Of a stretch of 64,000 nt of DNA, positions 22,951-50,082 are shown one piece after another. The stretch covers positions 181,970,001 to 182,034,000 of the forward strand of contig NC_091470.1 in the NCBI RefSeq assembly GCF_036971445.1, given 5' to 3'. The notes beneath the pieces are model-generated. The model ran no database searches, was not told where the DNA came from, and saw only the letters and a list, made by a program, of their open reading frames with translations. Each line of letters opens with the position of its first letter. Within the stretch, counting starts at the first letter, position 1. Both the position numbers and the translations under genes were made by a program. The DNA comes from Narcine bancroftii (taxonomy: Eukaryota).

Positions 22951-22966
22951 GGCTCTGAAAAGAGCC
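22951..22966 (-). terminator. Histone 3' stem-loop of gene A, followed by U7 HDE
   Basis: aaaaGGCTCTTTTCAGAGCCaccaa, then purine-rich GAGGAAGAGCTGT. Confidence 0.95.
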
Positions 22967-22993
22967 TTTTGTGTTGAGGGTGGGGCTCCGACT

Positions 22994-23500
22994 CTAACGC
23001 GTTTTGCCTGCCCGGCGTTGCCGCCCCATGGCTCTAGAGGCAGAGACTCTCTTGGGCGCCGTGCGCTTGCGGGGGCTCTTGGCCGCCGGCTTCCTCACCC
23101 GCTTCTGGGCGGCCGCTTTGGCTCCTGACGCCGTCCTCTTCCTGGCGGGCGCCTTCCTCGTTGCCCCTCTTCCGCCCCGGACCTTGGCTTCTCCCTGCTC
23201 GCCCTCCGCCACCCCCGGCTCGGCGCGCAGAGCGGTAGTTCCCGTCTCATAGGCGGCCGCCGAGGCTACTTTCTTCGCCGCGGCGGCGCCCGCCCTGGGG
23301 ACCTGGCGCTCCTTGGCGGCGGCCACCGCCTCTAGGATGTGCTCGGCGACGGCAGCCGGTGCGCCTTTTTGCCGATGGGCCGCCTTCTTCTTGGCGGCGG
23401 CCAAGACAGCGGAGGAGGCAGGGGCGGCAGGGACCCCGGAGAAATCGGGACCAGCAGCACCGGTGGGAGCGTCCGCTTCAGCGGGAACAGTCTCGGCCAT
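22994..23500 (-). CDS. H1-like gene A, 168 aa, incomplete globular domain
   Basis: MAETVPA N-terminus, VAEHILEAVAAAKER (H1 helix 1), K/R/A/P tail with KSPRK; intronless, CpG-rich; histone stem-loop 27 nt past the stop. Confidence 0.8.
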   Translation of the reverse strand: MAETVPAEADAPTGAAGPDFSGVPAAPASSAVLAAAKKKAAHRQKGAPAAVAEHILEAVAAAKERQVPRAGAAAAKKVASAAAYETGTTALRAEPGVAEGEQGEAKVRGGRGATRKAPARKRTASGAKAAAQKRVRKPAAKSPRKRTAPKRVSASRAMGRQRRAGKTR

Positions 23501-25161
23501 CAACCCCTCAGAGTCGACGCTCACCGCGCCAAGTGGCGGCGCTGACGCCCAGTCCGACCTATTATGAGGGGAAGGCGGACGGGGTGGAGCCGATGCGCTC
23601 GGCTCCGCCTCTATCCGCTGCCCCAATCACACCTAGCCCCGCCTACCAGTCCTTCCCTCGCCTGCCGCCCCACAGCCTCCCCGCCCGAAGCATCGCCGCC
23701 TCCTCAAACGTGATCCCATCACCAGCCACATCTTCCCTTCTCCGACCGCGTCTTTCTCGTCCACTCCTCCCTCCTTACCAATCGCCCCCTTGGCACCTCC
23801 CCCTGCGGGAGATGCTGCCCTTGGGTCCACATCCCCTTCCCTCACCACCACTATGGGCCCCAAACGCTCCTTCTAAGTGAAGCAACACTTCACTTGTGTA
23901 CTCGTGGGAGGCTAGAAAGGCCGTTCGGCCCTTCTAATCTGTGCTGGCCAATAAAACAAGCTAGTCCCACTGAACTACTCTCTTATCCATGCATTTATTC
24001 AATTTATTTACCTACTGCTCTGGCCTCTTCTACAACATAGAGACTGGCCACGGTCTGGGAGCTCGTTACGCTGAGTCTCTTCAGTCCATCCGCATGACCT
24101 CCCAGTGGCCAAACATTTCAATACTGCGTCCCTCTCCCGCGCCGACGTATCTGTCAAACCAGGGCTACCTGTAAATTTGATATGAGGAGCAACCCCTCAT
24201 ATCCCGTCCGAGCGCTCTCCAACCGGATAGTTTTAACTACGAATTCTCCGGTTTCTGCTAGCCCACTCCCCGTTCTCCTTCTCTTCCCCGTCCCTCTGTC
24301 TTATTTCCTTCCAGCTCTCCACCCACTTCCCTCTGCATTCACAGAGCCATCCCCTCTTCCCCGTTTATATGCGCTCCCTCCCTTCTCCACATATTACCTC
24401 CTGCTTGTGGGCGCGTCCTCCTCCCCCTGTCCCTCCATTTCATTTGCATATCTGCCTACCATACCCTGATGAGGCTTAAGACCAAAAAGGTTGGTTGTCT
24501 TTGCTATGTTAAACGTTGGTTAAATCCTTGCTGTTTGACCTGATGACTTTCTCCAGTTCAGTGTTTTACTGGGGGTGGGTTGTGGGGAGAGTTCGGGGAA
24601 CTAACATCATTACGGCCCGAAAAGCTGCAAACTAATCTGATGGATCAGCAAGTTGGGGGTTGGTTCACGCACCGTCGCGGCGGGTTGATCGAAGGAGCCG
24701 GACGCAGATCGGAAGGAGCGGATAGGAGAGAATAAAGAACCGTAAACAGATAACAAATGTAAACAGACTCTGCAATACAGACAGAACAAAGAAAATCAAT
24801 AAAGTGCACAAGTCCTTATATGAGTCCGAGTTTGGTTTTGAGTGGGGTGGTAGCTGTGTCCTGAACCTGGTGATGCAAGTCTTGCGGGACGCTACCTCTT
24901 TCCTGATGGTAGAAGCAAGAACAGATTCATCTTAAGAATCGTTTTGATAATGATTGGATTGATAAAAGGTTTTGGGTTTAATATGGTAAGAACAGAGCAT
25001 ATGCTGGGTGGCGTGGGTCCTCGATGATCGCTACTGCTCTCCGACGGCTGCATTCCCCGCAGATGGGAGGGTTTTACCTGCAATCCATCCCTTAAAAATC
25101 ATTTTGTAAATTGAACACAGTACAAGTGGTTATTGCAATCTACTGCGTAAATATTGTTGGA

Positions 25162-25177
25162 GGCTCTGAAAAGAGCC
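25162..25177 (-). terminator. Histone stem-loop of gene B with AATAAA abutting its 5' side
   Basis: AATAAAcGGCTCTTTTCAGAGCCtccaa; no convincing HDE seen. Confidence 0.9.
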
Positions 25178-25203
25178 GTTTATTTCGAATTCCAAACTTT
25201 AAT

Positions 25204-25683
25204 TTACTCCGAAGGCCATTTCGTTTTCAGCTTTTTTTTTCTATTTTGGGTTTTACGTTTTTTCTGGCCATTCGGTTTCTGCTTCTTGGTTCCCTTCTTG
25301 GCCTTGGTTTCAGTCGCAGCTTCCTTCTGCTGTCGTCTCTGCCGCTTGCTGAGGTCGAAGGAGTCCGAGGTCCTCTTGCCGCCTTTGGTCTGCACCAACG
25401 AGCCGCTGCTCACCAGGCCCTTGACCACCTTGTCGAGCCGGGCCTTGTCCAGTTCCACGTCGTAGCCATTGGCCAGCAGCACCTCCCTCAGCGAAGCGAG
25501 CGACAGGCCCCCGCGCTGCTTGCGGACGGACAGAGCCTGCAGGATCAGCTGCGAGATCCGCAGGTCCTGCTTCCGCCGGCGCCGGCCAGGCCGCGGCTGG
25601 CGGAGCTGGTGCTTCTTCTTCGACTTCTGTGGCTGCTCGGCTTTAACGCCAGGAGTAGGGGTAGCCCTGCGCCCCTTGGGCAT
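25204..25683 (-). CDS. H1-like gene B, 159 aa
   Basis: Winged helix ISQLILQALSVRKQRGGLSLASLREVLLANGYDVELDKARLDKVVKGLVSSGSLVQTKGGKRTSDSFDL; short K/Q tail; TTTAAA and a CCAAT box upstream. Confidence 0.9.
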   Translation of the reverse strand: MPKGRRATPTPGVKAEQPQKSKKKHQLRQPRPGRRRRKQDLRISQLILQALSVRKQRGGLSLASLREVLLANGYDVELDKARLDKVVKGLVSSGSLVQTKGGKRTSDSFDLSKRQRRQQKEAATETKAKKGTKKQKPNGQKKRKTQNRKKKLKTKWPSE

Positions 25684-28600
25684 GAGTCTGAACGCCGGGT
25701 AAGGAGCGGTACTCCTCCCCCAGCAGAGCCAGAGGACACCGCTCAAACACCTAAGCGGACGTCGGCCTTTAAAGATGCAAGGCGGACGTCGGTGGAAACA
25801 ACCTCCGGCGGCGTCCTCCAGAACCCACCAATCATGTGCCTCCTCTGCTTGCAACAGCGAGGCAATTTTGCCGCGCTCAGGCCGGACTCATCGACGCCCC
25901 GAATCTCTGGGCGATGGTAAACTTAAATGAAAATCAGAATGTGTCCCTCATGAACATGTCACGAAATTCATTGTTTTGCGCCAGGGCAGACATTGCTGTA
26001 AATTACCCTTCAAAAAAAAATCAATAGTGTAAGATAGGAAAAAAAATGGGTTCATTGTGAATTCAGGAGGCAGAGGGGAAGATGCTGTTTCTAAAACGTT
26101 GAGTCTCTTCAGGCTCCTGTACCTCCTTCCTGATGGTAGCAGATGTTATCAGATCAGCTGTGAGCTCACTGAATGGTGCAGCAGGCTCCACAGGCAGAAT
26201 GACCAACTACTGCTCCTTCTTCTTACATTCTTATGAACACATGTCATGAAATTAGTTGCTTTGCGGCAGGAGTGCTGCACAAAAATCCCTGTCAATTGCA
26301 TTTCTGTGAATACTCTCTTTAAAATTAAATAAATACGTGCAGAAGAGAGAAAGTGAGGTCGTGTCTATGGTTCGTTGTCAATGGTGGAGGCTGTTTCTGA
26401 AACGTTGGGTCGTCTTCAGTCTCTTGTCCCTCCCTCCTGATGGAAGCAGAGGGCACAGCCTGGGGATGTTGGTGGGGGGGGAGGGTGTCCTTGATAGAAG
26501 CTGCTTCCTTGAGACGTCTCTTTGGAGCAAACACCAATGCCCATGATGTCACTGGCCTCAGTTCAGAACCCAGACATAATGTCCCCAAAATCTCAAGGCA
26601 AGTTGGAATGGAAAGGACTTTTTGTGGGCTGCAAATGTCTGAGAAATGCAAAATATTGGTTTGTTGAACATCCTGAGATAATATAATGAAATTTGAATCC
26701 ATTTGTTCATGCAGAGCATCTTCCACAATATTTCAAATTAAGATTTCTCTTTAATGATGTGGAACAAGAAAGTCTGTGATTGTTGTTTACACAAGAATGC
26801 TGGAGAAACTCGGCAAGGCACGCAGTGTTCTTTCTTTTGTAGCAAAGACTTGGCAAATTGTTTCTTAAATGTACCCTTTACCTGACTGTTTTTCCCCCTT
26901 TGGTATCCGGGCGGGACTGTCTACGAGGAACGAATTAAATCCATATTTTGGAGACCCACACTGCGGAAACTGACTAAACTAAGCAGCTTAATAATCCATA
27001 TCGAAATGTTACATGTTAGTTAGTGAAATACATGAGCTGGTCTGTTACACGCGCAGCTAATCAAATGCAAAATTGGCAATTTTAACATAACTGCCACCTC
27101 TTGAGGCCTAGGTTGTTATTGTTCACAAAACACTCATAGAAAATATGTCGTCTGGAACAATTTAAAGGGAAACGAGAAAGAACCAGTTTAAAATGAACCC
27201 ACCTGTCACGACTGTGGTTTTTTTAATGTTTACTTGTATGCTGCATTTGTTTATTTTCATCAATAAAGCAACATTAAGTTATCCCAATAAACATAGCCAT
27301 TTAAGTACCTTGGAACAATTGGAAAGTGGGATGTGGTCAGATTACTGTCTCCCTATTTAAAAAAAAATTATGTTGTCTCGTTTGAATGGGATCACTGTTG
27401 GTTCGATTCACTAATCAATATACAAAACACACATTTTAAATGTAGGTGATTTTAAGAGGGTGCTGCTACAAATAAATCATCCCTGAATCCAATCTAGGAA
27501 ATATTCTGCTTCTTTCTTGATGAAGGTCTCAGGCCCAAAATGTTAGCAATATTTCTTTGTCTCCAGAAAAGACCGGCTGCACTCCTCCAGCATTTTGGCG
27601 TGTTTTTAACCACAGTCACGTCGTCTGCAGCCTTTTGTGCTTCACCCAATCTAAGAAACACATGGATCACTGCTTGAAGTCTTTGGAATGGGAGATTTTG
27701 TGCAGTGATGTTCATTTCACTTTATTGAAGCAGAGCGACAGGAATTTCTGACTGTGTTAATGTGCTGGGTTTTGAGTTCATGTCACTTCCCAGCTCTCGG
27801 TGCACAACTCCTCAAACACCCATGGACTGGAGAATGCTGTTTAGTTGGGGTTCAAACTGTAAACTTGGCTTAATTAAATCAGCCCATGTTTCAACAACCA
27901 ATTCCATCTTTTAACCTTGAGTTGACTTTTTTTTCTCTCTGGGGTTTTTTTTTCAATTATTTTCAAAATTTATGGATCAATTATTTTTGCTCTTTATCAA
28001 AAATCTTTTCTTTTTTATTCTTCCTCATTTTTTGTACTATTATTATTGAAATTAGTAGTTGACACTTGGTTTTGATTGTAATTGTTCAGATAATAGGTTG
28101 GGATTAGAAATTACATTAGTTACAGATTTTTTTCATATATGTGTATCTTGTTTACCGTTTTGTTTACTATCTGTCATTTTAATTCACTTTTACCTGAACT
28201 TTATATCATATGTATTTATGATATAATTATCTTATCAAAAACCAATGAAAAGATTGAAAAAGAAGATTTATGGTTTTGCTTGAGCTTGGAGAAAATTAGA
28301 TATTGTAGCAAGTCGGGTCAAACCGCATATGATGGGCCGAATTGCCATAACAGGGCACAGGGGCTTCCCCGCCCCCCCACCACCGCACAGAAGTTACAGG
28401 CTGCAGGAGTGCATTGCCAGGGGAATGGCCAGGCCTCACAGCATCATTATGACATCACTCCTGTGAGCCTGTTACACCACCCCCCCAAAAAAAGGAATGT
28501 GTGTGGTTTGAATAAACGGCATTTAATGGTTTACTTGCTTGGTGTGGACAGCAGCTCTGCCTTTAGCAGTGCTACAATATAACATTAAAGAGTTCTTAAT

Positions 28601-28729
28601 TGAATTTGATAAGGTATGGGCCCATTTACGGATTATTATCATAGATAGAATACTGCTGCAATTCACTCCACAACATGCACTACATCGCTAGCTCTCCACT
28701 CAGCTCCAGATCACCTCAAAAACTCATTC

Positions 28730-29725
28730 TGTTATGAGCCCAGAGGACACCCCAAAACCCAGCAGCAATAGAAATTCACCAAGACAAATGGTTGCTTAAA
28801 CAAAAGTTGCTTTTAATTATCTATGAACATGAAAACTGGATCAAACTTTAACTTATCACTATTAACTTACTTAACCTAACTTAACCCACTTCTAATTCTA
28901 AGTGCATGTGTGTGTGTAATGTGTATGTAAGTTCTGTAAAGTTCTTTGATTCACAGTCCATTCTCATTCCTCCAAGTTCATTGGTTGCAGCAATTCTTAT
29001 ACTGTGGACGGAATTTAACATTTATGATGTTCACCAGGCTTTGGTGCTTGAACGGTAAATGGTTACCACTCAGGAAGGTTCTTGTTGGTTTTCAGAGAGA
29101 GATTTGTTCTTCGCTGGTCACCCACAACTCCTTCCTTTTAATCAGCCACTTCAGTATTTTGCCAAAGAAACTTGCCCCATCAGGGTTCTTCAGTTGATAA
29201 CCTTTATTTCAGGTCACCACAGATTTCCTTTTTGTTTCCATTATTTCAAGTGAAACATGATGCAGCTAGTCCTTTCCTCTTGTATGGACCACATGAGCTT
29301 TGACCAGGCTGAACTAAGGACTCTCAACCTGTCATCCAAATGGGGTTTTCCACAAGCTTGCCATCTAGTCCTGATCCAATCCCAGCTACTGCTGCTGGCT
29401 GTAACACTGTAGAACTGAATTCCCTCTTTTTCTCTCAGAGAAAAAACCTGTTTGACTCCTTCTCTGCTTGCAAAAACCACACTCCAGGACAGGCTAGGCT
29501 CCGAACCTACTCCTCCAGCTCTTTCATCTGTTGCTTTTCAAAACAGCAATCCATTAGTGAAGTCGCTTGGGCACTCCCCAAAGCTCTTCCAAAGGCTCTG
29601 GGAGCTGGCCTGTCCAAGCTTGAGCAGAGCTCCAGTATTTTAAATCAGTTCTGTGAAGTGACCAACACTAAAAAAAAGAACCTGCCCCAATTTATCTCCC
29701 AAAAGCATATCTATAATCTGTCACA
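28730..29725 (-). mobile_element. ~1-kb solo LTR-like element
   Basis: TGT...ACA termini; homologous along its length to 31173-32128; no clean TSD. Confidence 0.75.
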
Positions 29726-30148
29726 CTTTGATCGTTCAGCATTCTCACTGCCCCTGGTAAGAAGCCACACCATTGGCTGCAATGGAGTGCGATTCCTGAT
29801 TGACCTGTGTTACTGCAGCGACCTTTAGAGAAGTGTTTCAGAAATAAAGTAACCCCAGACACCACCGATTCTTTCTGAAACATCTTCCTCGGCCGCTCGA
29901 CAGGGAAGGGAAATGTTGAACGCCGACCGAGCGTCGAGCCCATTGCCCAATTTCTGCCGAGGAATGGGTCAAACAGGGAGGCGCCCCGATGAGTTTGGGG
30001 GACCGGGCGGTGGTGGGGGCGAGTTGGGGCGACCGCGGGCGGAGACGCCGGGGGATTCCGAGGCACGGCGGCCGACGGGTCGGCATGCGGCGGGTCGGGC
30101 GTGACGGGGAGGGCGGTTTGGCCGGCTCTCCGGGGATTTGGCGGAGGG

Positions 30149-30240
30149 AAGAAACACAAATCGGGTGTTGGGCGACCCAGCGGCGGCGGCGGAATCGGGG
30201 AGGGGGGTCTCCTTTCCGTCCGCTTCCCGGGTACAAAGGG
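30149..30240 (+). promoter_or_regulatory. H1-type promoter of gene C
   Basis: H1 (AC) box AAACACA at 30152-30158, G-rich box, TATA-like TACAAA at 30232-30237. Confidence 0.7.
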
Positions 30241-30292
30241 GATCTCCTGCGCGTCGAGTTCGACACCCTTGCGGCAGCGGGAAGAGGACGCC

Positions 30293-30937
30293 ATGGCTGA
30301 GGAGTCGAGGACCGAAGACGTCGGCGATCTCGGCCGAGGGGGTGGCGGCGGAGCAGTGGCCAGGAGCAAGAGGAAGCGGCCGCGGGGCCGTCAGGGCGCC
30401 GAGGGTCCCACGGTGACCGAGCGCGTCCTGACGGCAGCGGCGGCCACCGAGAAGCGGCGCGGCCTCTCGCTCACCGCCCTTAAGAAGGCGCTGGCGGCCA
30501 AGGGCTACGACGTGGCGCGGCACAACGGCCGCGTCAATCGCGCTGTCCGCCAGCTGGTGAAGCAGGGGTCACTGGTGAAGACCAGCGGCGCCGGCGCCGC
30601 CGGTTCCTTCCGCCTCGGTCGGGCGGCGAGTGCCGGGTCCCGGCCGCCGCCGGCCCAGCGGGCCAGGAAGCGGCCGAGCAAGAGGGCCACCCCGGCGGCG
30701 CTGCGGGCGAAGGGCAGCCAGGTCTCGCAGCAGGGCAAGGGGGTGACCAGGCCCAGGAGCGCTCAAAGCCGACGCCTCAAGGTCAAGGCTTCCTCCAAAT
30801 ACAAGGCGGCCCGGGCCAAGAGACCGGACAACCCCAGAAGGAGGCGGCCGCCCAGCAACGCGCCGAAGCTACCGGTCGGGCGCCCGCGACTCCACCCAGT
30901 TGCCCAAAGATCGAAAGTGCCCTCCGGGGTGAAATGA
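30293..30937 (+). CDS. H1-like gene C, 214 aa, Arg > Lys
   Basis: gccATGG Kozak context; GPTVTERVLTAAAATEKRRGLSLTALKKALAAKGYDV...LVKQGSLVKTSGAGAAGSFRL winged helix; hand count about 35 R and 20 K. Confidence 0.93.
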   Translation: MAEESRTEDVGDLGRGGGGGAVARSKRKRPRGRQGAEGPTVTERVLTAAAATEKRRGLSLTALKKALAAKGYDVARHNGRVNRAVRQLVKQGSLVKTSGAGAAGSFRLGRAASAGSRPPPAQRARKRPSKRATPAALRAKGSQVSQQGKGVTRPRSAQSRRLKVKASSKYKAARAKRPDNPRRRRPPSNAPKLPVGRPRLHPVAQRSKVPSGVK

Positions 30938-30966
30938 ACCTGCTCTCTCCGAACCCCCAACACAAA

Positions 30967-31000
30967 GGCTCTTTTCAGAGCCACTACATATAGCAATAAA
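30967..31000 (+). terminator. Histone stem-loop (30967-30982) plus AATAAA (30995-31000) of gene C
   Basis: caaaGGCTCTTTTCAGAGCCactacatatagcAATAAA. Confidence 0.92.
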
Positions 31001-31172
31001 ATGAGCCAAATGCCACTGCAAATTATTTAAAAAAATATATTCATATTTTATTTGTAAAAGATTGAGTTTAACATTAAATACAAAATTGACAATTCCATAA
31101 TCGTTTGTAAAGCATTTCAGTTCTCTGTCACATGTCTGTTCATGGCCTCCTGTACTGTCTCACCAAGACCCA

Positions 31173-32128
31173 TGTTACCAGCCCAGAGGACCCCAAAATC
31201 CAGCAGCAATTGATATTCAGCAAGACAAATGGTGACTTAAACAAAAGTTGTTGTTAATTATCTTTTAAATAGGATCAAACTTAAACTAACCTAACTTGAC
31301 CCCCTTCTAATTCTAAGTGCACTGTGTGTGGAAGTTCAGAAAAGTTTTTTAGTTCACAGCCCAATCTCACTTCACACCCCTCCAAGTTCACTGGTTGCAG
31401 GCAATTCTTACACCGTGCATAGAATTTAACGAGTATAAAGTTCACCAGGCTGCGGTACTCGAAAGGTAGATGGTCACCGCTCAGGAAGGTTCTTGTCGAT
31501 TTTCAGAGAGAGATTTGTTGTACGATGACATTCACAACTGATTCTTATTTAATCGCCCACTCCAGTGTCTTGCTGATGAAACTTGGGCCCTTCAGGGTTC
31601 TCCAGATGATAACCTCTTTTTTTCAGGTCACCACAGAGTTCCTTTCTGTTTCACTTATTCCAAATGAAACATTAGACAGCCTGTCCTCTCCTCTTGCATG
31701 GACCACAAAGGCTTTGACGAAACTGAACTAGGAATTCACAACCAATTTTCAAAATGGGGTTTTTCCACAAGCTTTCCAGCTTGTCCTATTCCAGTCCCAG
31801 CTGCTGTTGCTGGCTGTAACATTGTAGAATTATATATCACTCTCTCTGAGAGAAAGCCTGTTTGACTCTCTCTGCTTGCAAAACCTCTTAGAACAAGTTC
31901 TCTTCCAGACTGTCTGCGGCTCCAACAAGATCTTTCATCTGTTGCTTTTTGTAAACAACAATCCATTAAGTAAAGTCTCTTGAGCACTCTTCAAAGCTCT
32001 TGCCAAAACTGTAGAGCCGATATGTCTAGCATGGGGCAGAGATCTGTTTTAAAGTGTTTGTCTGTGACCTACTCTAACAAACCTTTCCCAATTTACCTCC
32101 CAAAAACATATTAATATACTCTGTCACA
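31173..32128 (-). mobile_element. ~1-kb solo LTR-like element (same family as 28730-29725)
   Basis: tgttac...ctgtcaca termini; shared blocks cccagaggac, acaaaagttg, ggttcttgt. Confidence 0.75.
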
Positions 32129-35793: not shown

Positions 35794-35809
35794 GGCTCTT
35801 AAAAGAGCC
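35794..35809 (-). terminator. Histone stem-loop of the H3 pseudogene
   Basis: GGCTCTTTTAAGAGCC, 27 nt after the stop. Confidence 0.9.
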
Positions 35810-35836
35810 ATTGTGCTGCGGGTTTGCGGAAGAAAC

Positions 35837-36246
<410 letters not shown>

Positions 36247-37299: not shown

Positions 37300-39858
37300 T
37301 CTTCTTTCTTTGGCTTGGCTTCGCGGATGAAGATTTATGGAGGGGGTAAATGTCCACGTCAGCTGCAGGCTCGTTTGTGGCTGACAAGTCCGATGCGGGA
37401 CAGGCAGACACGGTTGCAGCGGTTGCAGGGGAAAATTGGTTGGTTGGGGATGGGTGTTGGGTTTTTCCTCCTTTGCCTTTTGTCAGTGAGGTGGGCTCTG
37501 CGGTCTTCTTCAAAGGAGGTTGCTGCCCGCCAAACTGTGAGGCACCAAGATGCACGGTTTGAGGCGATATCAGCTCACTGGCGGTGGTCAATGTGGCAGG
37601 CACCAACAGATTTCTTTAGGCAGCCCTTGTACCTTTTCTTTGGGGCACCTCTGTCCTGGTGGCCAGTGGAGAGCTCGCCATATAACACGATCTTGGGAAG
37701 GCGATGGTCCTCCATTCTGGAGACGTGACCCACCCAGCGCAGCTGGATCATCAGCAGCGTGGACTCGATGCTGTCGACCTCTGCCATCTCGAGTACTTCG
37801 ACGTTAGGGATGAAAGCGCTCCAATGAATGTTGAGGATGGAGCAGAGACAACGCTGGTGGAAGCGTTCTAGGAGCCGTAGGTGATGCCGGTAGAGGACCC
37901 ATGATTCGGAGCCGAACAGGAGTGTGGGTATGACAACGGCTCTGTATACGCTTATCTTTGTGAGGTTTTTCAGTTGGTTGTTTTTCCAGACTCTTTTGTG
38001 TAGTCTTCCAAAGGCGCTATTTGCCTTGGCGAGTCTGTTGTCTATCTCGTTGTCGATCCTTGTATCTGATGAAATGGTGCAGCCGAGATAGGTAAACTGG
38101 TTGACCGTTTTGAGTTTTGTGTGCCCAATGGAGATGTGGGGGGGGGGCTGGTAGTCATGGTGGGGAGCTGGCTGATGGAGGACCTCAGTTTTCTTCAGGT
38201 TGACTTCCAGGCCAAACATTTTGGCAGTTTCCGCAAAACAGGACGTCAAGCGCTGAAGAGCTGGCTCTGAATGGGCAACTAAAGCGGCATCGTCTGCAAA
38301 GAGTAGTTCACGAACAAGTTTCTCTTGTGTTTTGGTGTGAGCTTGTAGGCGCCTCAGATTGAAGAGACTGCCATCCGTGCGGTACCGGATGTAAACAGCA
38401 TCTTCATTGTTGAGGTCTTTCATGGCTTGGTTCAGCATCATGCTGAAGAAGATTGAAAAGAGGGTTGGTGAGAGAACACAGCCTTGCTTCACGCCATTGT
38501 TAATGGAGAAGGGTTCAGAGAGCTCATTGCTGTATCTGACCCGACCTTGTTGGTTTTCCTGGTGCGAGAAAGTGACAAACGAGATGTGCTCCACACCAGG
38601 GTCATGCCCAGCGCGGAATGCCACACTGACCACCGGCTGGTTCGCTGCAAGCTCAACCTTCACTTCAAGCCAAAGCCCAGGAACAGTAAAGCCCCCAGAA
38701 AGAGGTTCAATGTTGGAAACCTGCAGTCAGACGAAGCGAGAGGAAACTTCCAGGCAAACCTCAAAGCAAAGCTTGACGATGCAATCCGCCTCACGGACCC
38801 GTCCCCTGAAACCCTCTGGGATCAGTTGAAGACTACCATCCTGCAATCCACTGAAGAGGTACTGGGCTTCTCCTCCAGGAAAAACAAGGACTGGTTCGAA
38901 GAAAACAGCCAGGAAATCCAGGAGCTGCTGGCAAAGAAGCGAGCTGCCCACCAGGCTCACCTTACAAAGCCGTCCTGTCCAGAGAAGAAACAAGCCTTCC
39001 GTCGCGCATGCAGCCATCTTCAGCGCAAACTCTGGGAGATCCAAAATGAGTGGTGGACTAGCCTCGCCAAGCGAACCCAGCTCAGCGCGGACATTGGCGA
39101 CTTCAGGGGTTTCTACGAGGCTCTAAAGGCTGTGTACGCCCCCTCACCCCAAGTCCAAAGCCCGCTGCACAGCTCAGACGGCAAAGTCCTCCTCAGTGAC
39201 AAGATCTCCATCCTCAACCGATGGTCAGAACACTTCCAATCTCTTTTCAGTGCCAACCGCTCAGTCCAAGATTCCGCCCTGCTCCAGCTCCCTCAACAGC
39301 CCCTAAGGCTAGAGCTGGATGAGGTCCTCACCCAGGATGAGACATATAAGGCAATCGAACAACTGAAAAGTGGCAAAGCAGCAGGTATGGATGGAATCCC
39401 CCCCAGAGGTCTGGAAGGCTGGCGGCAAAACTCTGCATGTCAAACTGCATGAGTTTTTCAAGCTTTGTTGGGACCAAGGAAAACTGCCTCAGGACCTTCG
39501 TGATGCCACCATCATCACCCTGTACAAAAACAAAGGTGAGAAATCAGACTGGGGAATCACGCTGCTCTCCATTGCAGGCAAAATCTTCGCTAGGATTCTC
39601 CTAAATAGAATAATACCTAGTGTCGCCGAGAATATTCTCCCAGAATCACAGTGCGGCTTTCGCTCAGAGGAACTACTGACATGGTCTTTGCCCTCAGACA
39701 GCTCCAAGAAAAGTGCAGAGAACAAAACAAAGGACTCTACATCACCTTTGTTGACCTCACCAAAGCCTTCGACACCGTGAGCAGGAAAGGGCTTTGGCAA
39801 ATACTAGAGCGCATCGGATGCCCCCCAAAGTTCCTCAACATGATTATCCAACTGCACG
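37300..39858 (-). mobile_element. RTE LINE with inverted 5' segment
   Basis: RT 3' part on minus (37300-38558); APE end/linker/RT start on plus (38557-39858); TSD CGTCCTTTACTAT at 37287-37299 and 39857-39869. Confidence 0.93.
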
Positions 39859-41296: not shown

Positions 41297-41560
41297 CCCT
41301 CCATAATGTTTGGGAGAAAGACACTTTTTTCCATTATTTGCCCCTGTGCACCATGTTTTAAATTTGTAATCAAACAATTCACATGTAATTAAAGTACACA
41401 TTCCAGATTTTATTCAAGGTTTGGTTTGACCATGTAGAAATGACAGCATGTTTTTTACATAGTCCCCTCTTTTCAGGGCACTGTAATGTTTGGGACATTT
41501 GGCTTCACATGTTATGTTTAATTGCTTCATTGCTGCAGGTACAAGGGAGCTGGGCTTGCT
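41297..41560. mobile_element. Tc1-like terminal repeat remnant
   Basis: ccctccataatgtttggga at 41297 and the internal direct repeat taatgtttgggac at about 41484, as in IR/DR-type Tc1 ends. Confidence 0.5.
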
Positions 41561-43629
41561 TCATTTTACATTGCAGCCGCTCTGTAAAAATGTGTAGGGG
41601 GACAAGTGGAAAAATTACGGGATGGAATTTACATAATAAATTCCGCCTCAATATTTTTACACAGAAAATTGCCTGCTCTTCAGCTGCTTTGTAAAAGTGC
41701 CCGACAGCTCTGACCTGAGCCCATTTGAAGGTTCAAAAAGTTTTAGCCTTGTAGTTTGAAAACCACTGTTCCAATCGTCCCTAATTGACTCGTTATGTGC
41801 ACGGTTTCAGAACTCCAATGGGCCAATGGAAATTTTTCTCAGGAAAATTATTTCAGATTGGGTCAAGAGCAGGGATTCTCAACCTTCCCTTCCCACTCAC
41901 ATCCCTTACTAATCACAGAGCACCGATGGCATGGGGATTACTGAAAGTGGTACGTGAGTGGAATCAAAAGGATGAGAACCACTGAACTAAGAGCTCTCTG
42001 ACTGATGTGCTTTGATTTTTACTGTTGAATGCAATGGTTCTCATCCTTTTTCTTCCCACCCGCATCCCACCTTAAGCAATCCTTTACTAATCACAGAGCA
42101 CCGATGGCAGAGGGAATACTTAAAATGCGATGTGAGTGGAAATAAAAAGGTTGAGAACCATTGGTTTAATGCTTTCGCAGCTGTACAAGAATAAAATTCC
42201 AAGTTCAGTTCTCAAGACTTATGTCTTCCCAAAATGAAACTTTATTGGTAATAACTTATTTACAGAAGGAACCCTGTTCAGAGTCTGTTCCCACCCACAC
42301 TCCCACCCACATTCCCGTCACTAATATTGTTATATTCGATTCCACTTCCACCCCTTACCGCTTCTCCCGCCCACGTCTCAGCACACCCAAAATAAATACA
42401 TCTCCAGATTGAAATTATCCCAATAATCAGTCTCTGGGCCATATAAGATTTTGAGCGCATGTTAGACTGCCTCATTTGTTCGCGTAGCGAGGTTTTGAAA
42501 CTTTTTCCCCCCTCTCCGGCCAACCAGCAGACGTTCCATTTCGATTCTGGAGGTTTTCAGTTCAAGGACACCCAGTGTTCACCATATAACCATATTACCA
42601 TTTACAGCACGGAAACAGGCCATGTCGGCCCTTCAAGTCCGTACCAGTTCACTTGAACAACTCCACTAGCTCCTCCGCAAACTCCTGAGGAATCAGACAT
42701 AACTGAATAAGCAATAATGATAAACCACACAATATAGATGTTATGTGGAGGAAGACAACAACAGTATCCACTACCCTTGACCAGGTGCAGATAGAGAAAG
42801 AAACTTGTATTAATAATGTGGGAAGTTTAAAAGAAACAATATGAGCAAACATTGATTCTCCTTGAAAAAAATTGGCTTTATTACTGGTTTCCTTTTCTTT
42901 CACCTTATAATTTTTATTTTGTTGAAGCCACAGTGCCAAGGTTTTATGTCACATTCTTGACCACACAGAACAGCGGTTTTCAAACGTTTTCTTTTCATTC
43001 ACATTCCACCTTAGGTAATCACAAAATATCTATATGCCTCACATGGTATGTGAGTGGAAAGAGAAAGTTTGAAAAGCCAGTGCAGGCTCTTGTGCCAACC
43101 AATGTAAACATACTCCATAATCTAAACCAGGATGCTCAACCATTTTTCTTTCCACTCACACCCTACTTTAAGTAATCTCTATGCCATAGGTGCTCTGTGA
43201 TTAGTAAGGGGTTGCTTAAGGTGGGGTCTGGGTGAAAAATCACTGTTTAAATCATCCCTAATTGACTCGTTATGTGCCCAGTTTCAGAACTCCAAAGGAA
43301 ATGGGGCAATGACAATTTTTCTCAAGCAAAATATTTCAATAGCAATTGGGTCTAGAGCAGGGATTCTCGACCTTCCCACTTACTTATGCAAAGTGTTTAT
43401 CTGTTTTATTAGTGAATTAAAGCTACATAAATCTGCGTCTACTAAGTTTGGTTGATAATAATTTGGAATATCGTCCCCACATTTCCTTGCAGATGACATG
43501 TTTTGCAATTAGGAGATACTAGAACCTGGAAAGTGTCATCTACAGAGAGTAAAGGATAAAATGAATCCTCTTGAAGATTGGAGTGGTGGGCTATGTATGG
43601 AACTCAAAGTGTCGGGGAAGACATAAAAC

Positions 43630-44487
43630 CATATATAAAAATTACAGTATGGAAACAGGCCATCACCGCCCCTCTAGTCTGCACCGATTTAAGTGATCTC
43701 TAGTCCCACCTACCCACTCCCTGTCCATAACCCTCCAATCCCCTCACATCCATGCACTCATCCAACCATCTCTTAAATGACAAAACTGACCCTACTACAA
43801 TTACCTCCTCCAGAAGGTCATTCCACTCAGCCACCATTCTCTCATGTTACTTCTAAATCTTTGACCCCTAACCCTTAACTTATGACCCCTCATTCCAATC
43901 TCACCTACCCTCAAGGGGAAGAGCCTATTCACATCTACTCTGTCCATCCCCCTTATTTTTTAAATACCGCTATCAAATCCCCCATCAAGCTTTTACATTC
44001 CAATGAATAAAGACCCAGTCTACTCACTCTTTCTATGTATTCTAGATCCTGCAATCCAAGCAACGTTTTTGTAAATCTTTGCACCTCTCTACCTTATTGA
44101 TATCCATCCTATAATTTGGGACCAGAACTGCTCACAGTATTCCAAATTTGGCCTCACCATTACCTTGAATAGTCTCAATATCTCCTCCCAGCTCCTATAT
44201 TCTTTGCTTTGATTTATAAAGGCCTGAATACCAAAGAATCTTCTTCACCACCCTGTCTACATGAGCATCTAATTTCAAAGAACCATTATTCCAATATCTC
44301 TCTGTTCCTCTGCATTCCTCAATGCCCTCCTCTTCACTGCATATGTCCTGTTTTAATTATTCTTCCCAAAATGAAGCACCTCAGACTTATTGATATTAAA
44401 CTCCATCCGCCATCTTTCAGCCCACTCTTCTAAGCTGTCCAAATCCCTCTGCAGTCCCTGAAAACCTAGACAAATTTCTTCAAACTG
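43630..44487 (-). mobile_element. CR1-type LINE 3' fragment
   Basis: Minus translation LQRDLDSLEEWAERWRMEFNINKSEVLHFGKNN. Confidence 0.85.
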
Positions 44488-46603
44488 CCTGTCGGCTGAA
44501 CCTGACTTACAATTTGGACAAGTGTGTCTTCCGGACCACACGACTCGCGATTCTAGGTTGCGTGGTGGAGAACGGGATAGTCATGCCAGATCCTGACCGC
44601 ATGCGTCCCCTAATGGACGCTCCCCCCACCCCATACCCAGAAAGCGCTCAAATGCTCCCTGGGGCCTTTTCTCATATTACGCCAAATGGGTTCCACACTA
44701 TGCCGACAAGGCACGTCATCTTATCAAGACCACCTCCTTTCCCCTCTCGACCGAAGCCAGAGCGGCTTTCAATCGAATCAAATCCGACATCGCCACTGCG
44801 ATGCTGCACACGATCAACGAGTCTGTCCCGTTTCAAGTCAAGAGCGATGCATCCGACTTCGCCCTGGCAGCCACCTTGAACCAGGCTGGTCGGCCTGTAG
44901 CCTTCTTCTCCAAAACCCTCCAGGGTCCAGAGAGTAGACACTCCTCAATCGAGAAGGAGGCCCAGGCCATAGTTGAAGTGGTGCGTCGTTGGAGACATTA
45001 CCTCACTGGGAGGCGCTTTACACTGTTGACTGATCAACGCGCAGTCTCCTTCGTGTTCAGCAACACCCAGCGTGGTAAGATAAAAAATGACAAAATCGCC
45101 AGATGGAGAATCAAACTCTCCACCTTTAACTATGACACCCTTTACCGGCCTGGTAAGCTCAACAACCCGCCTGACGCGCTCTCCAGGGGGACGTGCGCCA
45201 GCGTACAGATGGACAGACTACAGAAACTCCATGAGGCGCTCTGTCATCCAGGGGTCTCTAGGTTTGCCCACTTTGTGAAGGCACGCAACCTACCCTACAC
45301 AGTCGAGGAGATCCGCTCCATGACCCGAGCCTGTTCGGTGTGCGCTGAATGCAAGCCCCACTTCTTCCGTCCAGATAACTCCCATGTTATCAAATCCACC
45401 CGCCCCTTCAAGCGTCTTAGCGTAGACCTTAAGGGGCCCCTACCGTTGACCAACCGTAATAACTACATCCTTACGGCCATCGACAAGTACTCCCGCTTCC
45501 CGTTCACTGTGCCCTGCCCAGACACCACTGCCACTTCAGTGATACAGTATTTTCGCCATTTTCGGGTACCCCAATTCCATCCACAGTGATAGGGAGTCCT
45601 CATTCATGAGCGCAGAGCTGCAACAGTACCTTCTGGAGTGTGGTATTGCTTCAAGCAGGACCACCAGCTATAACCCATGTGGTAACGGCCGGGTCGAAAG
45701 GGAGAATGCCACCATATGGAGAGCGGTTACACTGGCTCTCCGGTCTAAAGGTCTCCCCACCTCTCACTGGCAGGAGGTTCTCACTAGTGCCTTACACTCC
45801 ATCCGCTCCCTCCTATGTACCACAACAAATGCCACCCCCTACGAAAGGATGTTCCTTTTCCCGAGGAAATCCGAATCAGGAACCACTGTACCGGCATGGC
45901 TCACCGTCCCTGGCCCCGTCCTTTTGTGACGCCATGTCCGGCACTCAAAGAACGACCCCTTGGTCGACCGAGTGACTCTACTCCACGCGAACCTGCATTA
46001 CGCCTACGTTGAGTTCCCAGACGGGTGGGAGGACACTGTTTCGGTGCGGGACCTAGCTCAGGACGCAGTAGACCCAGCAAACCCCCCAACCCAACCTTCC
46101 CCAACTCTTTATTCCCCAGGCCCCATGCCGCAACAGAAGGACCAACAGCACCCCAACGACCTGGGCCACCCTGCCGACAACACGACTGGGGAATTGAGCG
46201 AAGGAGCGGTCACACCCGACGAGCCTGCTGGCGACCCCAATCCCAGCACCATGGCGGTCACGCCAGATGGTCAGACCCCCTGACCGCTACAGTCCTTAAC
46301 CTACCCCTTCCTTTCATTCTCTCCCTCGTTTTTTTTTCCAGGGTCGTTCTCTAAGAAGGGGTGAATGTGATAGTACAGAGCTATCACCAATGTATATAGT
46401 GTATATAATTACAGATTCTAGACTGTGCTTACAGCGATTGGCTGAGAGCTAAGCCACGCATACTGTCTGGGCCTTAAAGGGTTGTGTCCCTAGCCAGGTC
46501 GGATCATTTCGGACTGGTCGGCCACCTGTGAAGAGCTCCTGTCTTTTGCTAATAAAAGCCTTGGTTTGGATTGACAAGTCTTTGATTCTTTCGACGAGCT
46601 CTA
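44488..46603 (+). mobile_element. 5'-truncated Ty3/Gypsy LTR retrotransposon (RT end, RNase H, integrase, PPT, 3' LTR 46366-46603)
   Basis: SDASDFALAATL, SSIEKEAQAIV, LLTDQRA, HHCC zinc finger, NGRVERENATI; frameshifts and stops; PPT aagaaggggtgaa before TGTGATAG. Confidence 0.92.
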
Positions 46604-46911
46604 GAGTGAGGTCTTGCACTTTGGAAGACAAACCACGATAGGACATACACAGTTAAAAGTTATTGAGGAGTACGGTGGAACAGAGGGATCTGGAATACAT
46701 ATACAAAATTCCCTGAACGTGGTGTCACAAGAAGATAGGCACACTGCCTTGTAAATCAAAGCATCGAGAGTAGGAGTTGGGATTGATCGGTGAAGTTGTA
46801 TAAAATGATGCAACCGTATCTGGTCTCATCAGCCACAACGATGGGTTGCACTACAGAGAAGAAGTGGAAAATCTTGTGAAATGGTGCGAGAGTAACAAGC
46901 TGAGTCTCTAC

Positions 46912-47611
46912 TGTTATGAACCGCGCATAGCGAGCAGCAATAGGTAATGAATGTGTGATATACCCAAACCATTACAGTCCAGGCCAAAATCTAGAAAGTT
47001 ACTTCAAAGTTCAGCCTTTCAAACTCACCGTTGAAGTGTAGGCCTTTGAAGTGTGATGCCCAGAATTAACGTTGAACTGATGGGAAGACTGGAGTTGTGG
47101 CTACTACAGACTCACGAATTCTTCTTGCATTGCCTTTGAAGAAATGTCCATCCACACGAGCTGTGGTCACTACACTGGTCCTTCTGTAGGTGAGACTCGA
47201 ACTGGGCGGCCTCCATGGAGCTTCCAAGACCCAGGCACTGGTCTCTCCAAGTAACTTCACTGTTAGTCACAATCAAAATTAAGCATTTTGCTTCTCAAAA
47301 AGACCATCCTGGCACAGGTCAATCCACTGAAGAGTCCAGTCATCACTCTAAATTCCACAAATATGCCTGGCTGCTTCGAAGAGTATGATTTCTCCCTTTG
47401 CAAAATCACAATCTATCGAATTCTGGAACAGACTGTGACAAAGCCTTCCCTCAGTGCTTCCAATGTATCTAATTGTCACTGGGCTATGGCCTGTGTTATG
47501 ATGGTGCTTGTGTGAAATATTAATATTAACTGTGACCATTCAGTTCCTCCTGTCTATACTGTCCCTTACAGTGATAATCCCATTTTACTAAAATGGAAGC
47601 TTCTAATACAA
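46912..47611. mobile_element. Probable solo LTR inserted into a Rex-like LINE
   Basis: TGTTAT...AATACA termini; LINE sequence ctgagtctc / atgtggacaagac resumes across it. Confidence 0.5.
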
Positions 47612-48516
47612 TGTGGACAAGACAAAGGAGATGATTGTGAACTTTAGGAGGATCAGGGACCACCAGCCTCCACTACACATTAATAATACAGTAGTGAAGA
47701 CAGTAGAGAGCACCAGGTGCCTCAGAGTCCACTTTTCATCTATCCTGGATGCAGGAAGGCGCAACAACAACTGCACTTCCCGAGAAGACTGAAGTGGGCA
47801 AGGCTTCCGGCCACCATCACGTCAACCTTCTACAGGAGCTCTATCGAGAGCATCTTGTCCGGCTGCATCACAGGGTGGGCACGGTTGCTACAGAGAAATG
47901 GATTATAGGTCAATCCACAGGACCATGAAAGTGGCAAAGATTACTGTCGTCTCCCTCCCCTCCTCTCCCCACCTCTGCCCCCCACCACCACTCCTCTCAC
48001 CCTCAGCAAGGACCTCTTCCACCCTGCACACAACATCGTTCAGCTGCTCCCGTCGGGGGAAGAGGTACAGGAGGATAAGAGCCAGAACCACCAGGCCGAG
48101 GAAGAGCTTCTTCCCATGGGCAGTGAGGACACTGAACCCTCTCAGACTCCATAATCGAATTTCGGTCCACGACTCTTCACTCTGCCAGGATTTATATAAG
48201 ACAATAATTAATTGGAGCAGAAATAGGCCATTCAGCCCATCAAGCCTGTCCCACCATTGAGCCAATCCATTCTCCCAATGCCCGGCCTTCTCCCGGTAAC
48301 CTTTGATGCCCCTGGCTAATCAACAGCCAATGAATCTCTGTCTTTAATACATCCAGTGACCCAGCCTCCACAACATCCTGCGCAACACATTCCACAGACT
48401 CACCACCCTCTGGAATACACCCATTTCAGTGTAATTTAGGCTGGTAAAAGAGAATTGAACATCGAGTCCATTGCGATTTCTTCACCAGCCAGTTGTCAGA
48501 TTGTGAGTTTAGCTGC

Positions 48517-48861
48517 TTTCAGGTGGCCAGAATACCCAAATGTAAAGCTGCCTCTTCTACCCCAACGCGGATGTCAGGTGGCCACCTGAAAGCTGTGAAC
48601 CCTGCCAGGAGGAGCACTTCCCTGACCCTCCTCCTGTAGGTATAATCTCCGGCTTGGGGAATCCCCCATTGCACCTGAAAGGAGCAGCAGGACTTAAGGC
48701 CACGGTCTGCAGGGGCCGGCATTCGCTTGGACGTGGCTTCTCCTTCAGCCAGGGCGTCATGGTGGCAGGAAGGCGTCTTTCTCTGCGCCACCTGAACGTC
48801 CCAGCTGCACTCCCCTTAAGCTGCGTCTGCCGGCGCATTATCTGTGTTCGAGCACCTGAAA
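48517..48861. mobile_element. MITE with TTTCAGGTG...CACCTGAAA inverted ends
   Basis: Terminal inverted repeat, internal palindrome tcaggtggccacctga; second copy at about 35246-35565. Confidence 0.65.
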
Positions 48862-49297
48862 TCAGCTTTAGATAGTTGAGGAGATATACAATGGGAGGGG
48901 GGGGGGGGGAAGGGGAGGAGGAATTTATTTGGACTTTAATGCAGCCAACCTAGTGTGTTAATGACAGCAGGGTTAGCAAGATCTTCTTCTGCTGCACATG
49001 ACATTAGGGCCCCGGATCCTTATGGAATATAAACCTCAACTCTTCCTCTGAACGCCCAAGGTTCAATATATGCCCATGGGTCGAATTCGTCCAATGTTCC
49101 AACCGCGTAAACAGGGCGGGCGTTCCCTTCGGGGCGCCAAGGGCGACCTAATGTGGAGCCGGAAAGGCTGGCAGGGCTTGGCTGCGCCCCGAACCGCCGC
49201 TCGGGCGAGGCGTGGCGGCTGGCGGGAACAGGGCGGCAGGCGGGAACGGGCGGGCGCTCGCTCTTTCCTGCGCTCCCAGCTCGGTTTTGGGCCAGGA

Positions 49298-49350
49298 GAA
49301 AGCACAAACCCGGGTTGGGTGACTCTACCACGTCCGCGCCGCCACTATAA
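49298..49350 (+). promoter_or_regulatory. Promoter of H1-like gene D
   Basis: Variant H1 box AAGCACA (49300-49306) and TATAA at 49346-49350. Confidence 0.7.
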
Positions 49351-49414
49351 CCGCGGCCGCGGCGTCGCCGCCGGCATCATGGTGGCCCCCTGTAGTTGCG
49401 ACGAGCGGGAGCGG

Positions 49415-49999
49415 ATGGCAGAGACGGGCGCGGAGGTAACGACGGCGGCGGCCGCTTCCCCGCCGGCGGACGAGAAGAAGAAACGGCGGCCGTTTCGCCA
49501 CAAGAAGCTGGGTGGAGGTATGGCCGAGCAGATCATGAAGGCGGTGGCCTTGACCAAAGAGCGACGGGGTCTGTCGGTGGCTGCCATGAAGAAGATCCTG
49601 ACGGCCAGCGGTTACAACCTGGAGCGCCGCAACTCGCGCGTCAACCGCGCCGTGCGCACCCTGGTGAGCCGCGGCTCACTGGTGCAGACGGCCGGCTGCG
49701 GCGCCTCGGGCTCGGTCAGGCTCGGCGGCGGCCCCCTGGTGGAGCCGGCCGTGCGCCGGCGGCGAGCCCGGCGGCTGACGGCTCCGAGGAAGAGGAGGAG
49801 GACGAAGGGGCGCAGCCGGCGGAAGAAGGCGGGCACCTCGAGGAAGGCGGCCAGGCGCTGGCAAGGCAGCCGGGCGCGGCGAGCCGCGGGCCGGCGCCGC
49901 CCCGTGAAAGGTGTCGAGGAGGAGACGAAGGCGGCCTCGGACAGCGAGAAGCCGGCAAACTTGGAGCAGCAGGGAACTGCCGAGCTCGACAAGGGCTAA
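49415..49999 (+). CDS. H1-like gene D, 194 aa, protamine-like Arg-rich tail plus acidic C-terminus
   Basis: MAETGAE start; winged helix MAEQIMKAVALTKERRGLSVAAMKKILTASGYNL...LVSRGSLVQTAGCGASGSVRL; tail RRRRARRLTAPRKRRRTKGRSRRKK; hand count about 34 R and 18 K; in-frame upstream ATG at 49379 lies near the expected TSS. Confidence 0.93.
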   Translation: MAETGAEVTTAAAASPPADEKKKRRPFRHKKLGGGMAEQIMKAVALTKERRGLSVAAMKKILTASGYNLERRNSRVNRAVRTLVSRGSLVQTAGCGASGSVRLGGGPLVEPAVRRRRARRLTAPRKRRRTKGRSRRKKAGTSRKAARRWQGSRARRAAGRRRPVKGVEEETKAASDSEKPANLEQQGTAELDKG

Positions 50000-50076
50000 A
50001 CCACTTATACGATGTTAACTTAAAATGTAGCAAATTTAAAATGTAGCGAACTTGTGTCCTAAATGATTCTTGATGT

Positions 50077-50082
50077 AATAAA
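50077..50082 (+). terminator. Poly(A) signal of gene D
   Basis: AATAAA 77 nt after the stop; no histone stem-loop seen downstream. Confidence 0.7.

Follow-up and report, generated by a model that had tools for sequence, protein, structure and literature searches.

Germ-cell H1 variants are known from mammals and lack clear orthologues in other animals. Testis-specific variants are, according to one source, common, quickly evolving and of polyphyletic origin, and H1t (H1.6, HIST1H1T), which it places in Histone Gene Cluster 1, is given there as having clear orthologues in mammals only (PMC3380720). Protamine-like proteins (PLs) are characterized as proteins with a winged helix and a cleavable Arg/Lys-rich stretch of 30-50 residues, and are said to descend from the H5, or replication-independent, branch (PMC13148410), while PL-I proteins are reported to contain more basic residues than somatic H1 (PMC4584325). 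The last source also describes an Arg-rich H1 in erythrocytes (H5), which means that an Arg-rich composition does not by itself indicate sperm.

The window analyzed here, 64,000 nucleotides of Narcine bancroftii (contig NC_091470.1), contains four H1-derived ORFs, A-D, which probably represent an old cartilaginous-fish set of non-somatic, Arg-shifted H1 variants, likely employed in spermatocytes or spermatids in the manner of H1t. The likeness to H1t consists in divergent H1 genes of replication-dependent type located in a histone cluster, with more Arg and few S/TPxK sites, as seen in two H1t-type matches; the differences are that H1t and the window genes grouped together in neither of the trees, that at least five parallel subfamilies stand here against one gene, and that Arg exceeds Lys in most genes of the window type. 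With PL-I (bivalves, tunicates, Mullus surmuletus, Nasonia) B, C and D share the winged helix and Arg-rich disordered tails, but they show no rise in basic residues over somatic H1, belong to a set of stem-loop genes that resemble replication-dependent H1, and lack SPxR repeat arrays, of which the flounder protein P0019 has 21 sites. Somatic H1 (human H1.1-H1.5, chicken GH1 and the genome's own clusters C11 and C9) is similar in domain sequence, single exon, stem-loop and, for C, the AAACACA element, whereas the genome's own somatic copies are Lys-rich, near-identical multicopy genes found together with canonical core histones, on contigs other than this one. Finally, database models of rays, sharks and Callorhinchus called 'histone H1-like' (for example P0152, P0155, P0010, P0012, P0013, P0053, P0070, P0041) fall into the same subfamilies by tree and motifs, differing in that their names are automatic only and the proteins are unstudied.

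Table 1. Histone-related features of the window (positions counted from its first nucleotide)
Feature	Positions	Strand	Description
Gene A	22994..23500	-	168-aa H1-derived ORF; helices I-II kept (aa 51-82)
Stem-loop of A (histone 3' type)	22951..22966	-	28 nt past stop
Gene B	25204..25683	-	159-aa H1 variant; globular domain aa 43-113
B 3' elements	25162..25184	-	AATAAA 25179-25184, then directly histone stem-loop 25162-25177
AAACACA element	30152..30158	+	141 nt before the ATG of C
Gene C	30293..30937	+	214-aa H1 variant; globular domain aa 39-110
C 3' elements	30967..31000	+	histone stem-loop 30967-30982; AATAAA 30995-31000
H3-variant pseudogene	35837..36246	-	broken by a stop (codon 6) and by the loss of one base near codon 69
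Stem-loop of H3 pseudogene	35794..35809	-	histone stem-loop pattern
Orphan histone stem-loop	41156..41171	-	no histone coding remnant upstream
Gene D	49415..49999	+	194-aa H1 variant; globular domain aa 36-104; no stem-loop
AATAAA of D	50077..50082	+	78 nt past stop of D; putative polyadenylation signal replacing the stem-loop

The four ATG-initiated ORFs were verified (Table 1), with GC of 0.60-0.72 and CpG observed/expected ratios of 0.83-1.09. The first-pass annotation had described them as intronless, CpG-rich and bearing H1 winged-helix signatures; the ORFs stand, and the domain was recovered by Pfam PF00538 in B (33.6 bits, 4.7e-8), C (55.0 bits, 9.5e-15) and D (55.1 bits, 9.2e-15; cut-off 22.4), but in A neither Pfam PF00538 nor PDB sequences gave a match, even at E<=10. 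An intronless gene with a 3' stem-loop, a replication-dependent feature, was found in A, B and C; B and C carry AATAAA as well, and D, for which no stem-loop was found within two mismatches of the pattern, carries AATAAA only. The stem-loop pattern yielded five exact matches and, with up to two mismatches, seven matches against 1.89 expected, a number reached in none of 100 shuffles. The AAACACA upstream of C, which we take to be the H1 AC-box, occurs in this genome's somatic H1 promoters too.

Among PDB sequences, C matched best chicken GH1 and human H1.4 (E 1e-19 to 3e-18), against 4e-7 or weaker for H5/H1.0; the protein carries a VGRPR motif at its C-terminus. A database record, P0003 ('histone H1-like [Narcine bancroftii]'), holds C letter for letter with 172 additional N-terminal residues, and P0004 adds 115 residues to D, whose ORF at 49415 forms the 3' portion of an ORF of 309 aa. 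Relatives beginning at the Met matching position 49415 back this start of D, and the relatives together with the promoter elements favour the shorter starts of both C and D over the database models. D carries three Arg runs, and its relatives keep a KKKRRPxRHKK head and tail motifs; the claim that the tails are not alignable is true among A-D and fails for D, whose tail aligns with its counterparts in other species.

The composition of the four proteins was compared with that of 14 somatic H1 copies from this genome. R/(R+K) amounts to 0.40-0.65 in A-D (B 0.40, C 0.64, D 0.65) against 0.11-0.15 in somatic H1, and the earlier observation that Arg exceeds Lys in C (R35/K20) and D (R34/K18) is correct and extends to A (R19/K17), B having R19/K29. 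The near absence of S/TPxK sites was likewise confirmed: A has one S/TPx[KR] site and B, C and D none, against 2-4 per somatic copy, i.e., the Lys-rich tail with several such sites typical of somatic H1 is lacking in A-D. Total K+R is 21.4% in A, 30.2% in B, 25.7% in C and 26.8% in D versus 29.3-30.9% in somatic H1; thus, Lys is largely swapped for Arg, and total basic residues are not raised above somatic H1. Acidic residues make up 4.7-8.2% versus 3.7-4.8%, and the most Arg-rich windows of 30 residues contain 14 Arg (18 K+R) in D, 8 (13) in C, 9 (16) in B and 9 (13) in A. GC3 is also elevated, 0.76-0.89 versus 0.63-0.75 in somatic H1. The two H1.0-type genes of the genome, however, have GC3 of 0.77-0.80 and stay Lys-rich (R/(R+K) 0.12-0.19), so high GC3 alone does not yield Arg, and GC drift as the sole cause of the Arg content is ruled out.

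The domain region of D is 57-85% identical to proteins of seven other rays and sharks, and D counterparts occur in rays, skates, sharks and a chimaera. In a tree built on a domain alignment of 75 columns, in which 23 of the 56 inner branches were unresolved, D-type proteins joined with a Callorhinchus protein (100/96), the C/E type formed a group (100/96; E lies outside the window, see below), and B grouped with Heptranchias, Heterodontus and Scyliorhinus proteins (100/99). Forcing B, C, D and E of Narcine bancroftii into one clade was rejected (AU p 2.1e-5), which rules out a species-specific expansion. Hence the narrow sense of a lineage-specific array, as initially proposed, has to be given up: B, C and D have ray and shark counterparts and, on the sequences compared, appear to be specific to cartilaginous fishes as a whole rather than to a narrower lineage. 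Forced groupings of the globular domains with H1.0 (AU p 0.38), H1t (0.197) or the genome's somatic H1 (0.29) were not rejected; similarity and stem-loops point to replication-dependent descent of A-D, of which the tree gives no proof. Judged from contig records and accession numbers rather than DNA gene order, members of different subfamilies lie together on one contig in Heterodontus (three consecutive accessions), Heptranchias, Hypanus, Scyliorhinus and Carcharodon. R/(R+K) measured in 27 database relatives was 0.42-0.73, similar across subfamilies. By a crude count, dN/dS between paralogous domains is 0.48 for C/E, 0.54 for C/D and 0.99 for D/E. The whole-protein search with C retrieved only two teleost H1s among 4469 candidates.

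Searching with seven of the genome's own core histones (tblastn) revealed no intact core-histone gene in the window, as had been stated for the interval among A-D, and only a broken H3-variant gene, which lies among A-D together with an orphan stem-loop and was overlooked in the first-pass annotation. This pseudogene retains promoter boxes and its stem-loop. An intact H3 variant located 1.8 Mb off on this contig shares 398 of the 411 aligned bases with it, compared with 349 and 359 for two canonical H3 copies. Outside the window, at 115-143 kb, two further Arg-rich H1 derivatives, E (a close paralogue of C, 120 kb off) and F, occur with intact H4, H2A and H2B genes, and the contig also bears H2B genes of divergent sequence as well as an H3 variant. 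Each of A-F is a single gene that diverges from the others. The initial description of A-D as H1-derived, non-somatic and Arg-shifted is largely upheld, the genes lying apart from the Lys-rich somatic H1 clusters of the same genome.

The part of the locus most worth attention is the loss of the globular domain in A and F. The match of A to the D-type profile (score 52.7; none of 300 shuffles reached it, their maximum being 23.7) runs through the N-terminus and helices I-II, the only parts that align, helix III and the wing being unrecognisable; by this profile evidence A (Ala 29.8%) is H1-derived despite the absent domain match. A Carcharodon-P0041-type profile also exceeded all shuffles (40.6), leaving two candidate subfamilies. 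DNA alignments of A with B, C, D, E and F stayed at or near the shuffle level (z 0.6-3.0), with no frameshift history readable, and a protein atlas search with A returned only bacterial matches below 0.9. Low-confidence structure models, too poor for a structure search, gave two helices for A and three for D (pTM 0.16 and 0.18). F, 140 kb off, has 30.2% Arg and 34.6% K+R and has lost most of the globular domain; its origin from the B type is indicated by a profile score of 37.3, reached by none of 300 shuffles, while Pfam gave no match and the whole-protein search no relative. It is conceivable, albeit doubtful, that cartilaginous fishes keep a male germ-line locus in which paralogues of replication-dependent H1 became Arg-rich and shed the winged helix twice (A, F); this would be a living, independent path leading from clustered H1 to protamine-like sperm proteins without the domain, distinct from the H1.0/H5 route assumed for known PLs.

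Considering these data, germ-line use of A-D is the likeliest reading. The proteins would replace somatic H1 on spermatocyte and spermatid chromatin, as H1t does in mammals, acting on still-nucleosomal chromatin ahead of the final sperm proteins and not as final packers. B, C and D would presumably bind the nucleosome entry/exit site by the globular domain, like any H1; their tails would be poor targets of CDK-type phosphorylation, and, with polyadenylation signals added, mRNA could also be made outside S phase. A, devoid of helix III and the wing, would bind DNA via its tail only, or the gene may be decaying.

It has to be asked whether A-D are instead PL-type sperm nuclear basic proteins or their precursors, displacing histones in mature sperm, with the steps from H1 to protamine held at one locus. 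The winged helix with an Arg-rich disordered tail in C and D, the 14 Arg within 30 residues of D and the two genes deprived of most of the domain, of which F is the more basic, would suit such proteins, but the basicity that defines PLs is not found in A-D, acidic residues equal or exceed those of somatic H1, A-C resemble replication-dependent H1 and bear stem-loops, unlike the H5-branch PLs, and F is without a relative in the search, all of which makes this explanation quite unlikely. Nor do the data bear out the view of the first-pass annotation that the locus captures stages of sperm nuclear basic protein evolution: the subfamilies are parallel and old, their Arg fractions are similar rather than graded, and the basicity of somatic H1 is exceeded by no gene of the window.

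Transcription was observed in an RNA run, X1, picked because it contains C; although none of the listed runs is recorded as RNA, X1 represents RNA, since a 2572-nt contig follows a VARS1 exon and diverges from the genomic sequence at its splice sites, and the non-genic bins are near-empty. Its contigs cover A, B and C. Bin depth, which indicates cover only and cannot rank genes, was 6396 for B and 9602/22546 for C, against 0 and 0.21 in two unique non-genic bins, and the contig over A had a depth of 32, only 1.5-3 times that of neighbouring non-coding contigs (10-22). B and C, and weakly A, are thus transcribed in one RNA run. Cross-mapping of E reads onto C was ruled out, the identity of 86% over 213 nt being below the 95% threshold. 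A contig downstream of B (24788-25314) overlaps repeats and was left out of 3'-end inference. Two further runs of that study, X2 and X3, gave depths of 127 and 126 for the VARS1 exon contig, 0 for the C bins, and 1.12 and 0 for the B bin, X2 containing one 171-nt B contig of depth 3.6; this pattern would fit tissue-restricted expression, missing contig cover not being counted as evidence.

A-D could instead serve another specialised cell type (erythrocytes, oocytes, early embryos) as Arg-rich variants comparable to bird H5, Arg enrichment being known for the erythrocyte protein (PMC4584325). Yet two H1.0-type genes and oocyte-H1-like exons, so labelled by sequence reading and tree, are encoded elsewhere in this genome, which renders such a role rather improbable. 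Co-located divergent core-histone variants, here H2B and H3, are also more typical of germ-line histone sets. That the locus is a decaying, largely functionless remnant of a replication-dependent histone cluster, with GC-rich drift from Lys to Arg, is highly improbable, as the H3 pseudogene, the orphan stem-loop, the raised GC3, the D/E dN/dS near 1 and the eroded domain of A (for which alone decay may well hold) are opposed by open frames, intact domains and ray and shark counterparts of B, C and D, by the kept head and tail motifs of D, by Lys-rich H1.0-type genes at similar GC3 and by transcription of B and C.

With at least five H1 subfamilies retained in both rays and sharks, one of them also in a chimaera, germ-line H1 variants of the kind proposed for A-D would constitute a case independent of, and much older than, the mammalian one, and A and F would open the long-standing idea of protamines arising from H1 by domain loss and Arg gain to a direct test in a vertebrate; should the genes be expressed outside the germ line, they are an undescribed but ordinary H1 variant set.

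VARS1 adjoins the window, and a Pfam scan of 59 of the 254 long frames to the right of the window detected repeats only. VARS1 is an MHC-region gene in mammals, where HIST1 adjoins the MHC, and an MHC linkage of the present locus may be suggested by this single gene. Among marker families searched for in the genome, IZUMO and AKAP_110 gave no match; SYCE3 and THEG are present.

The first-pass annotation had reported four intronless H1-like open reading frames (A to D), and all four were found in place, GC- and CpG-rich (GC 0.60-0.72; CpG observed/expected 0.83-1.09), with the described composition (A, R19/K17; B, R19/K29; C, R35/K20; D, R34/K18) and with CDK-type S/TPx[KR] sites nearly absent (one in A, none in B, C and D). 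The winged helix attributed to each of them was recovered in B, C and D, which match the Pfam linker-histone model, and only by half in A, which has no match to that model and none to PDB sequences at E up to 10. A D-type profile built from relatives scored A at 52.7 (maximum of 300 shuffles, 23.7), the score being carried by the N-terminus and the first two helices; the segment corresponding to helix III and the wing could not be aligned to the relatives' profiles. Taken together, the Pfam, PDB and profile results indicate a winged helix in three genes and half of one in the fourth, with which low-confidence structure models, showing two helices for A and three for D, weakly agree.

Fourteen somatic H1 copies of the same genome served as composition controls. 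R/(R+K) is 0.11-0.15 in these copies versus 0.40-0.65 in A-D, K+R 29.3-30.9% versus 21.4-30.2%, and S/TPx[KR] sites number 2-4 per copy versus 0-1, so that the shift in A-D is a swap of Lys for Arg without gain of charge. Base composition alone is insufficient to account for it, since the two H1.0-type genes have a GC3 of 0.77-0.80, yet are Lys-rich. These two genes are distinct and lie 22 kb apart on another contig, C27.

Coordinates of the features (C5, contig holding the window; positions without prefix are window-relative)
Feature	Position	Strand	Remarks
A	22994-23500	-	
B	25204-25683	-	
C	30293-30937	+	
D	49415-49999	+	
F	C5:181827435-181827914	+	159 aa; 30.2% Arg; four Arg runs; stem-loop and AATAAA
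H4, intact	C5:181832174-181832482	-	98% to canonical copy
H2A, intact	C5:181840282-181840659	-	90%
E	C5:181847325-181848062	+	245-aa H1; 20% Arg; stem-loop
H2B, divergent	C5:181854873-181855280	-	79% over 117 aa
GST-domain class I tRNA synthetase exons	2885-18297, continuing left	-	
Histone stem-loop	35794-35809		exact match; of H3-variant pseudogene
Histone stem-loop	41156-41171		exact match; orphan
Endogenous retrovirus	55120-61348	+	Gag p30, protease-RT-RNase H-integrase, env-like ORFs

The profile of B, C, D and E, run against 1.84 billion representatives, listed 150 matches, the names of 30 of which were examined; for the D domain region alone, seven further proteins of rays and sharks are 57-85% identical. 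In a domain tree of 60 rows and 75 columns (rows hand-chosen from profile and domain matches, with this genome's H1s added but A and F excluded; 23 of 56 inner branches unresolved), support was 100/96 for a group of D, its counterparts and one Callorhinchus protein, 100/96 for C and E together with proteins of rays and sharks, and 100/99 for B with three from sharks; two additional shark subfamilies appeared, and every type except B was joined at 95/86. After 19 rows had been removed as long or redundant, topology tests on the remaining 41 rejected a species-specific clade of Narcine B, C, D and E (AU p 2.1e-5), but did not reject placing the entire set with H1.0 (0.38), with H1t (0.20) or with this genome's somatic H1 (0.29). 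In sequence, C lies much nearer to replication-dependent H1 (E 1e-19 for GH1) than to H5/H1.0, where E is 4e-7 or weaker. In several species one contig carries different subfamilies (in Heterodontus, under three consecutive accessions), and R/(R+K) is 0.42-0.73, without gradient, in all 27 relatives measured (cartilaginous-fish or unnamed). The subfamilies are parallel and old, neither a graded series nor a recent array; the proposals of a lineage-specific array, in the narrow sense, and of stages of sperm nuclear basic protein (SNBP) evolution captured at one locus are accordingly not supported. A VGRP[RK] motif, reminiscent of an AT-hook core, occurs near the C-terminus of C (30878-30895), in E and in 8 of 28 relatives checked, spanning three subfamilies.

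No intact core-histone gene lies among A-D, in agreement with the first-pass annotation. Within the 464 kb read around the window, a second histone group 115-143 kb to the left comprises F, H4, H2A, E and H2B. E, with the tail SPARRRRSPSPRRR, is a paralogue of C (86% identity across 213 nt of domain). The match of F to the B-type profile (score 37.3, reached by none of 300 shuffles) is confined to helices I-II, which makes it a second domain-eroded derivative, one of B-type origin in which only these helices are kept; no database relatives of F were found, and it is the most protamine-like gene at the locus. Between the two groups lies the gene whose exons are GST-like and of class I tRNA-synthetase type, probably VARS1, an MHC-region gene in mammals. 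The window's H3-variant pseudogene carries a stop at codon 6 and, near codon 69, a one-base deletion; it agrees in 398 of 411 aligned bases with an intact H3 variant lying 1.8 Mb away (within C5:180179001-180189000), which has several substitutions in common with it and is adjoined by an H2B variant whose N-tail is Arg-rich. Exact stem-loops stand 3' of A, B and C, accompanied by AATAAA in B and C; D has no stem-loop, with AATAAA 78 nt past its stop. No coding remnant was found for the orphan stem-loop. The retrovirus carries protease-RT-RNase H-integrase in a 1181-aa open frame, with gag lying in more than one ORF; the stretches 7715-8965, 37575-39780 and 44801-45929 hold reverse-transcriptase fragments of LINE-like type and a fragment of an LTR-retrotransposon RNase H/integrase.

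Three public runs of a single study were listed, and one of them, X1, in which 63% of the words sampled from C occur, was picked out through its C content; run contigs were compared with window 16500-32000. A 2572-nt X1 contig matches one VARS1 exon over 392 nt, ending at its splice sites, and X1 is therefore RNA. Depth in X1 was 0 and 0.21 in unique non-genic bins, 6396 in the bin over B and 9602/22546 in those over C, values that give no basis for ranking the genes; the one contig across A has depth 32, close to the local background of 10-22. VARS1 gave a spliced contig in all three runs.

We consider it fairly probable that these genes encode spermatocyte/spermatid linker histones acting ahead of the final sperm proteins. 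B, C and D would be equipped as H1s for the nucleosome entry/exit, their Arg-shifted tails almost devoid of CDK-type sites; a polyadenylation signal that accompanies the stem-loop or takes its place would allow expression outside S phase. The co-located H2B and H3 variants make the whole resemble a germ-line histone set. Mammalian H1t would be closest in way of working, as an analogue. True protamine-like (PL) sperm proteins are an unlikely reading: PL proteins, mainly defined by dominance in sperm, also have more basic residues than somatic H1, a feature that A-D lack. Linker histones of another specialised cell type are equally improbable. A may be decaying whichever explanation holds; decay of the locus itself is still harder to credit. 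The boldest reading, that clustered H1 has independently given rise to protamine-like proteins without the domain, via A and F, is rather doubtful.

Older protein chemistry on dogfish spermatid proteins and protamines could already include some of A-F. In the literature searched, which takes in few of the subscription journals, no description of the cluster was found, and the genes belong to a real, old and apparently undescribed family of Arg-rich H1 variants. For comparison, PMC13148410, PMC3750513, PMC12216123, PMC4584325, PMC3380720 and PMC5011920 were used; by analogy only, a coelacanth testis table has a testis-specific histone and PL-I among its top transcripts (PMC3750513).

The genome search returned 29 linker-histone matches, the Lys-rich somatic H1s being clustered on contigs C11 and C9, flanked by canonical core histones in both stretches read. 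The globular domain of these somatic H1s is unusually divergent, with a long branch and 1-2 Cys, and their genes have a variant stem-loop in which the loop reads TTCT; the window's H1 variants are nearer to tetrapod somatic H1 domains than these somatic copies are.
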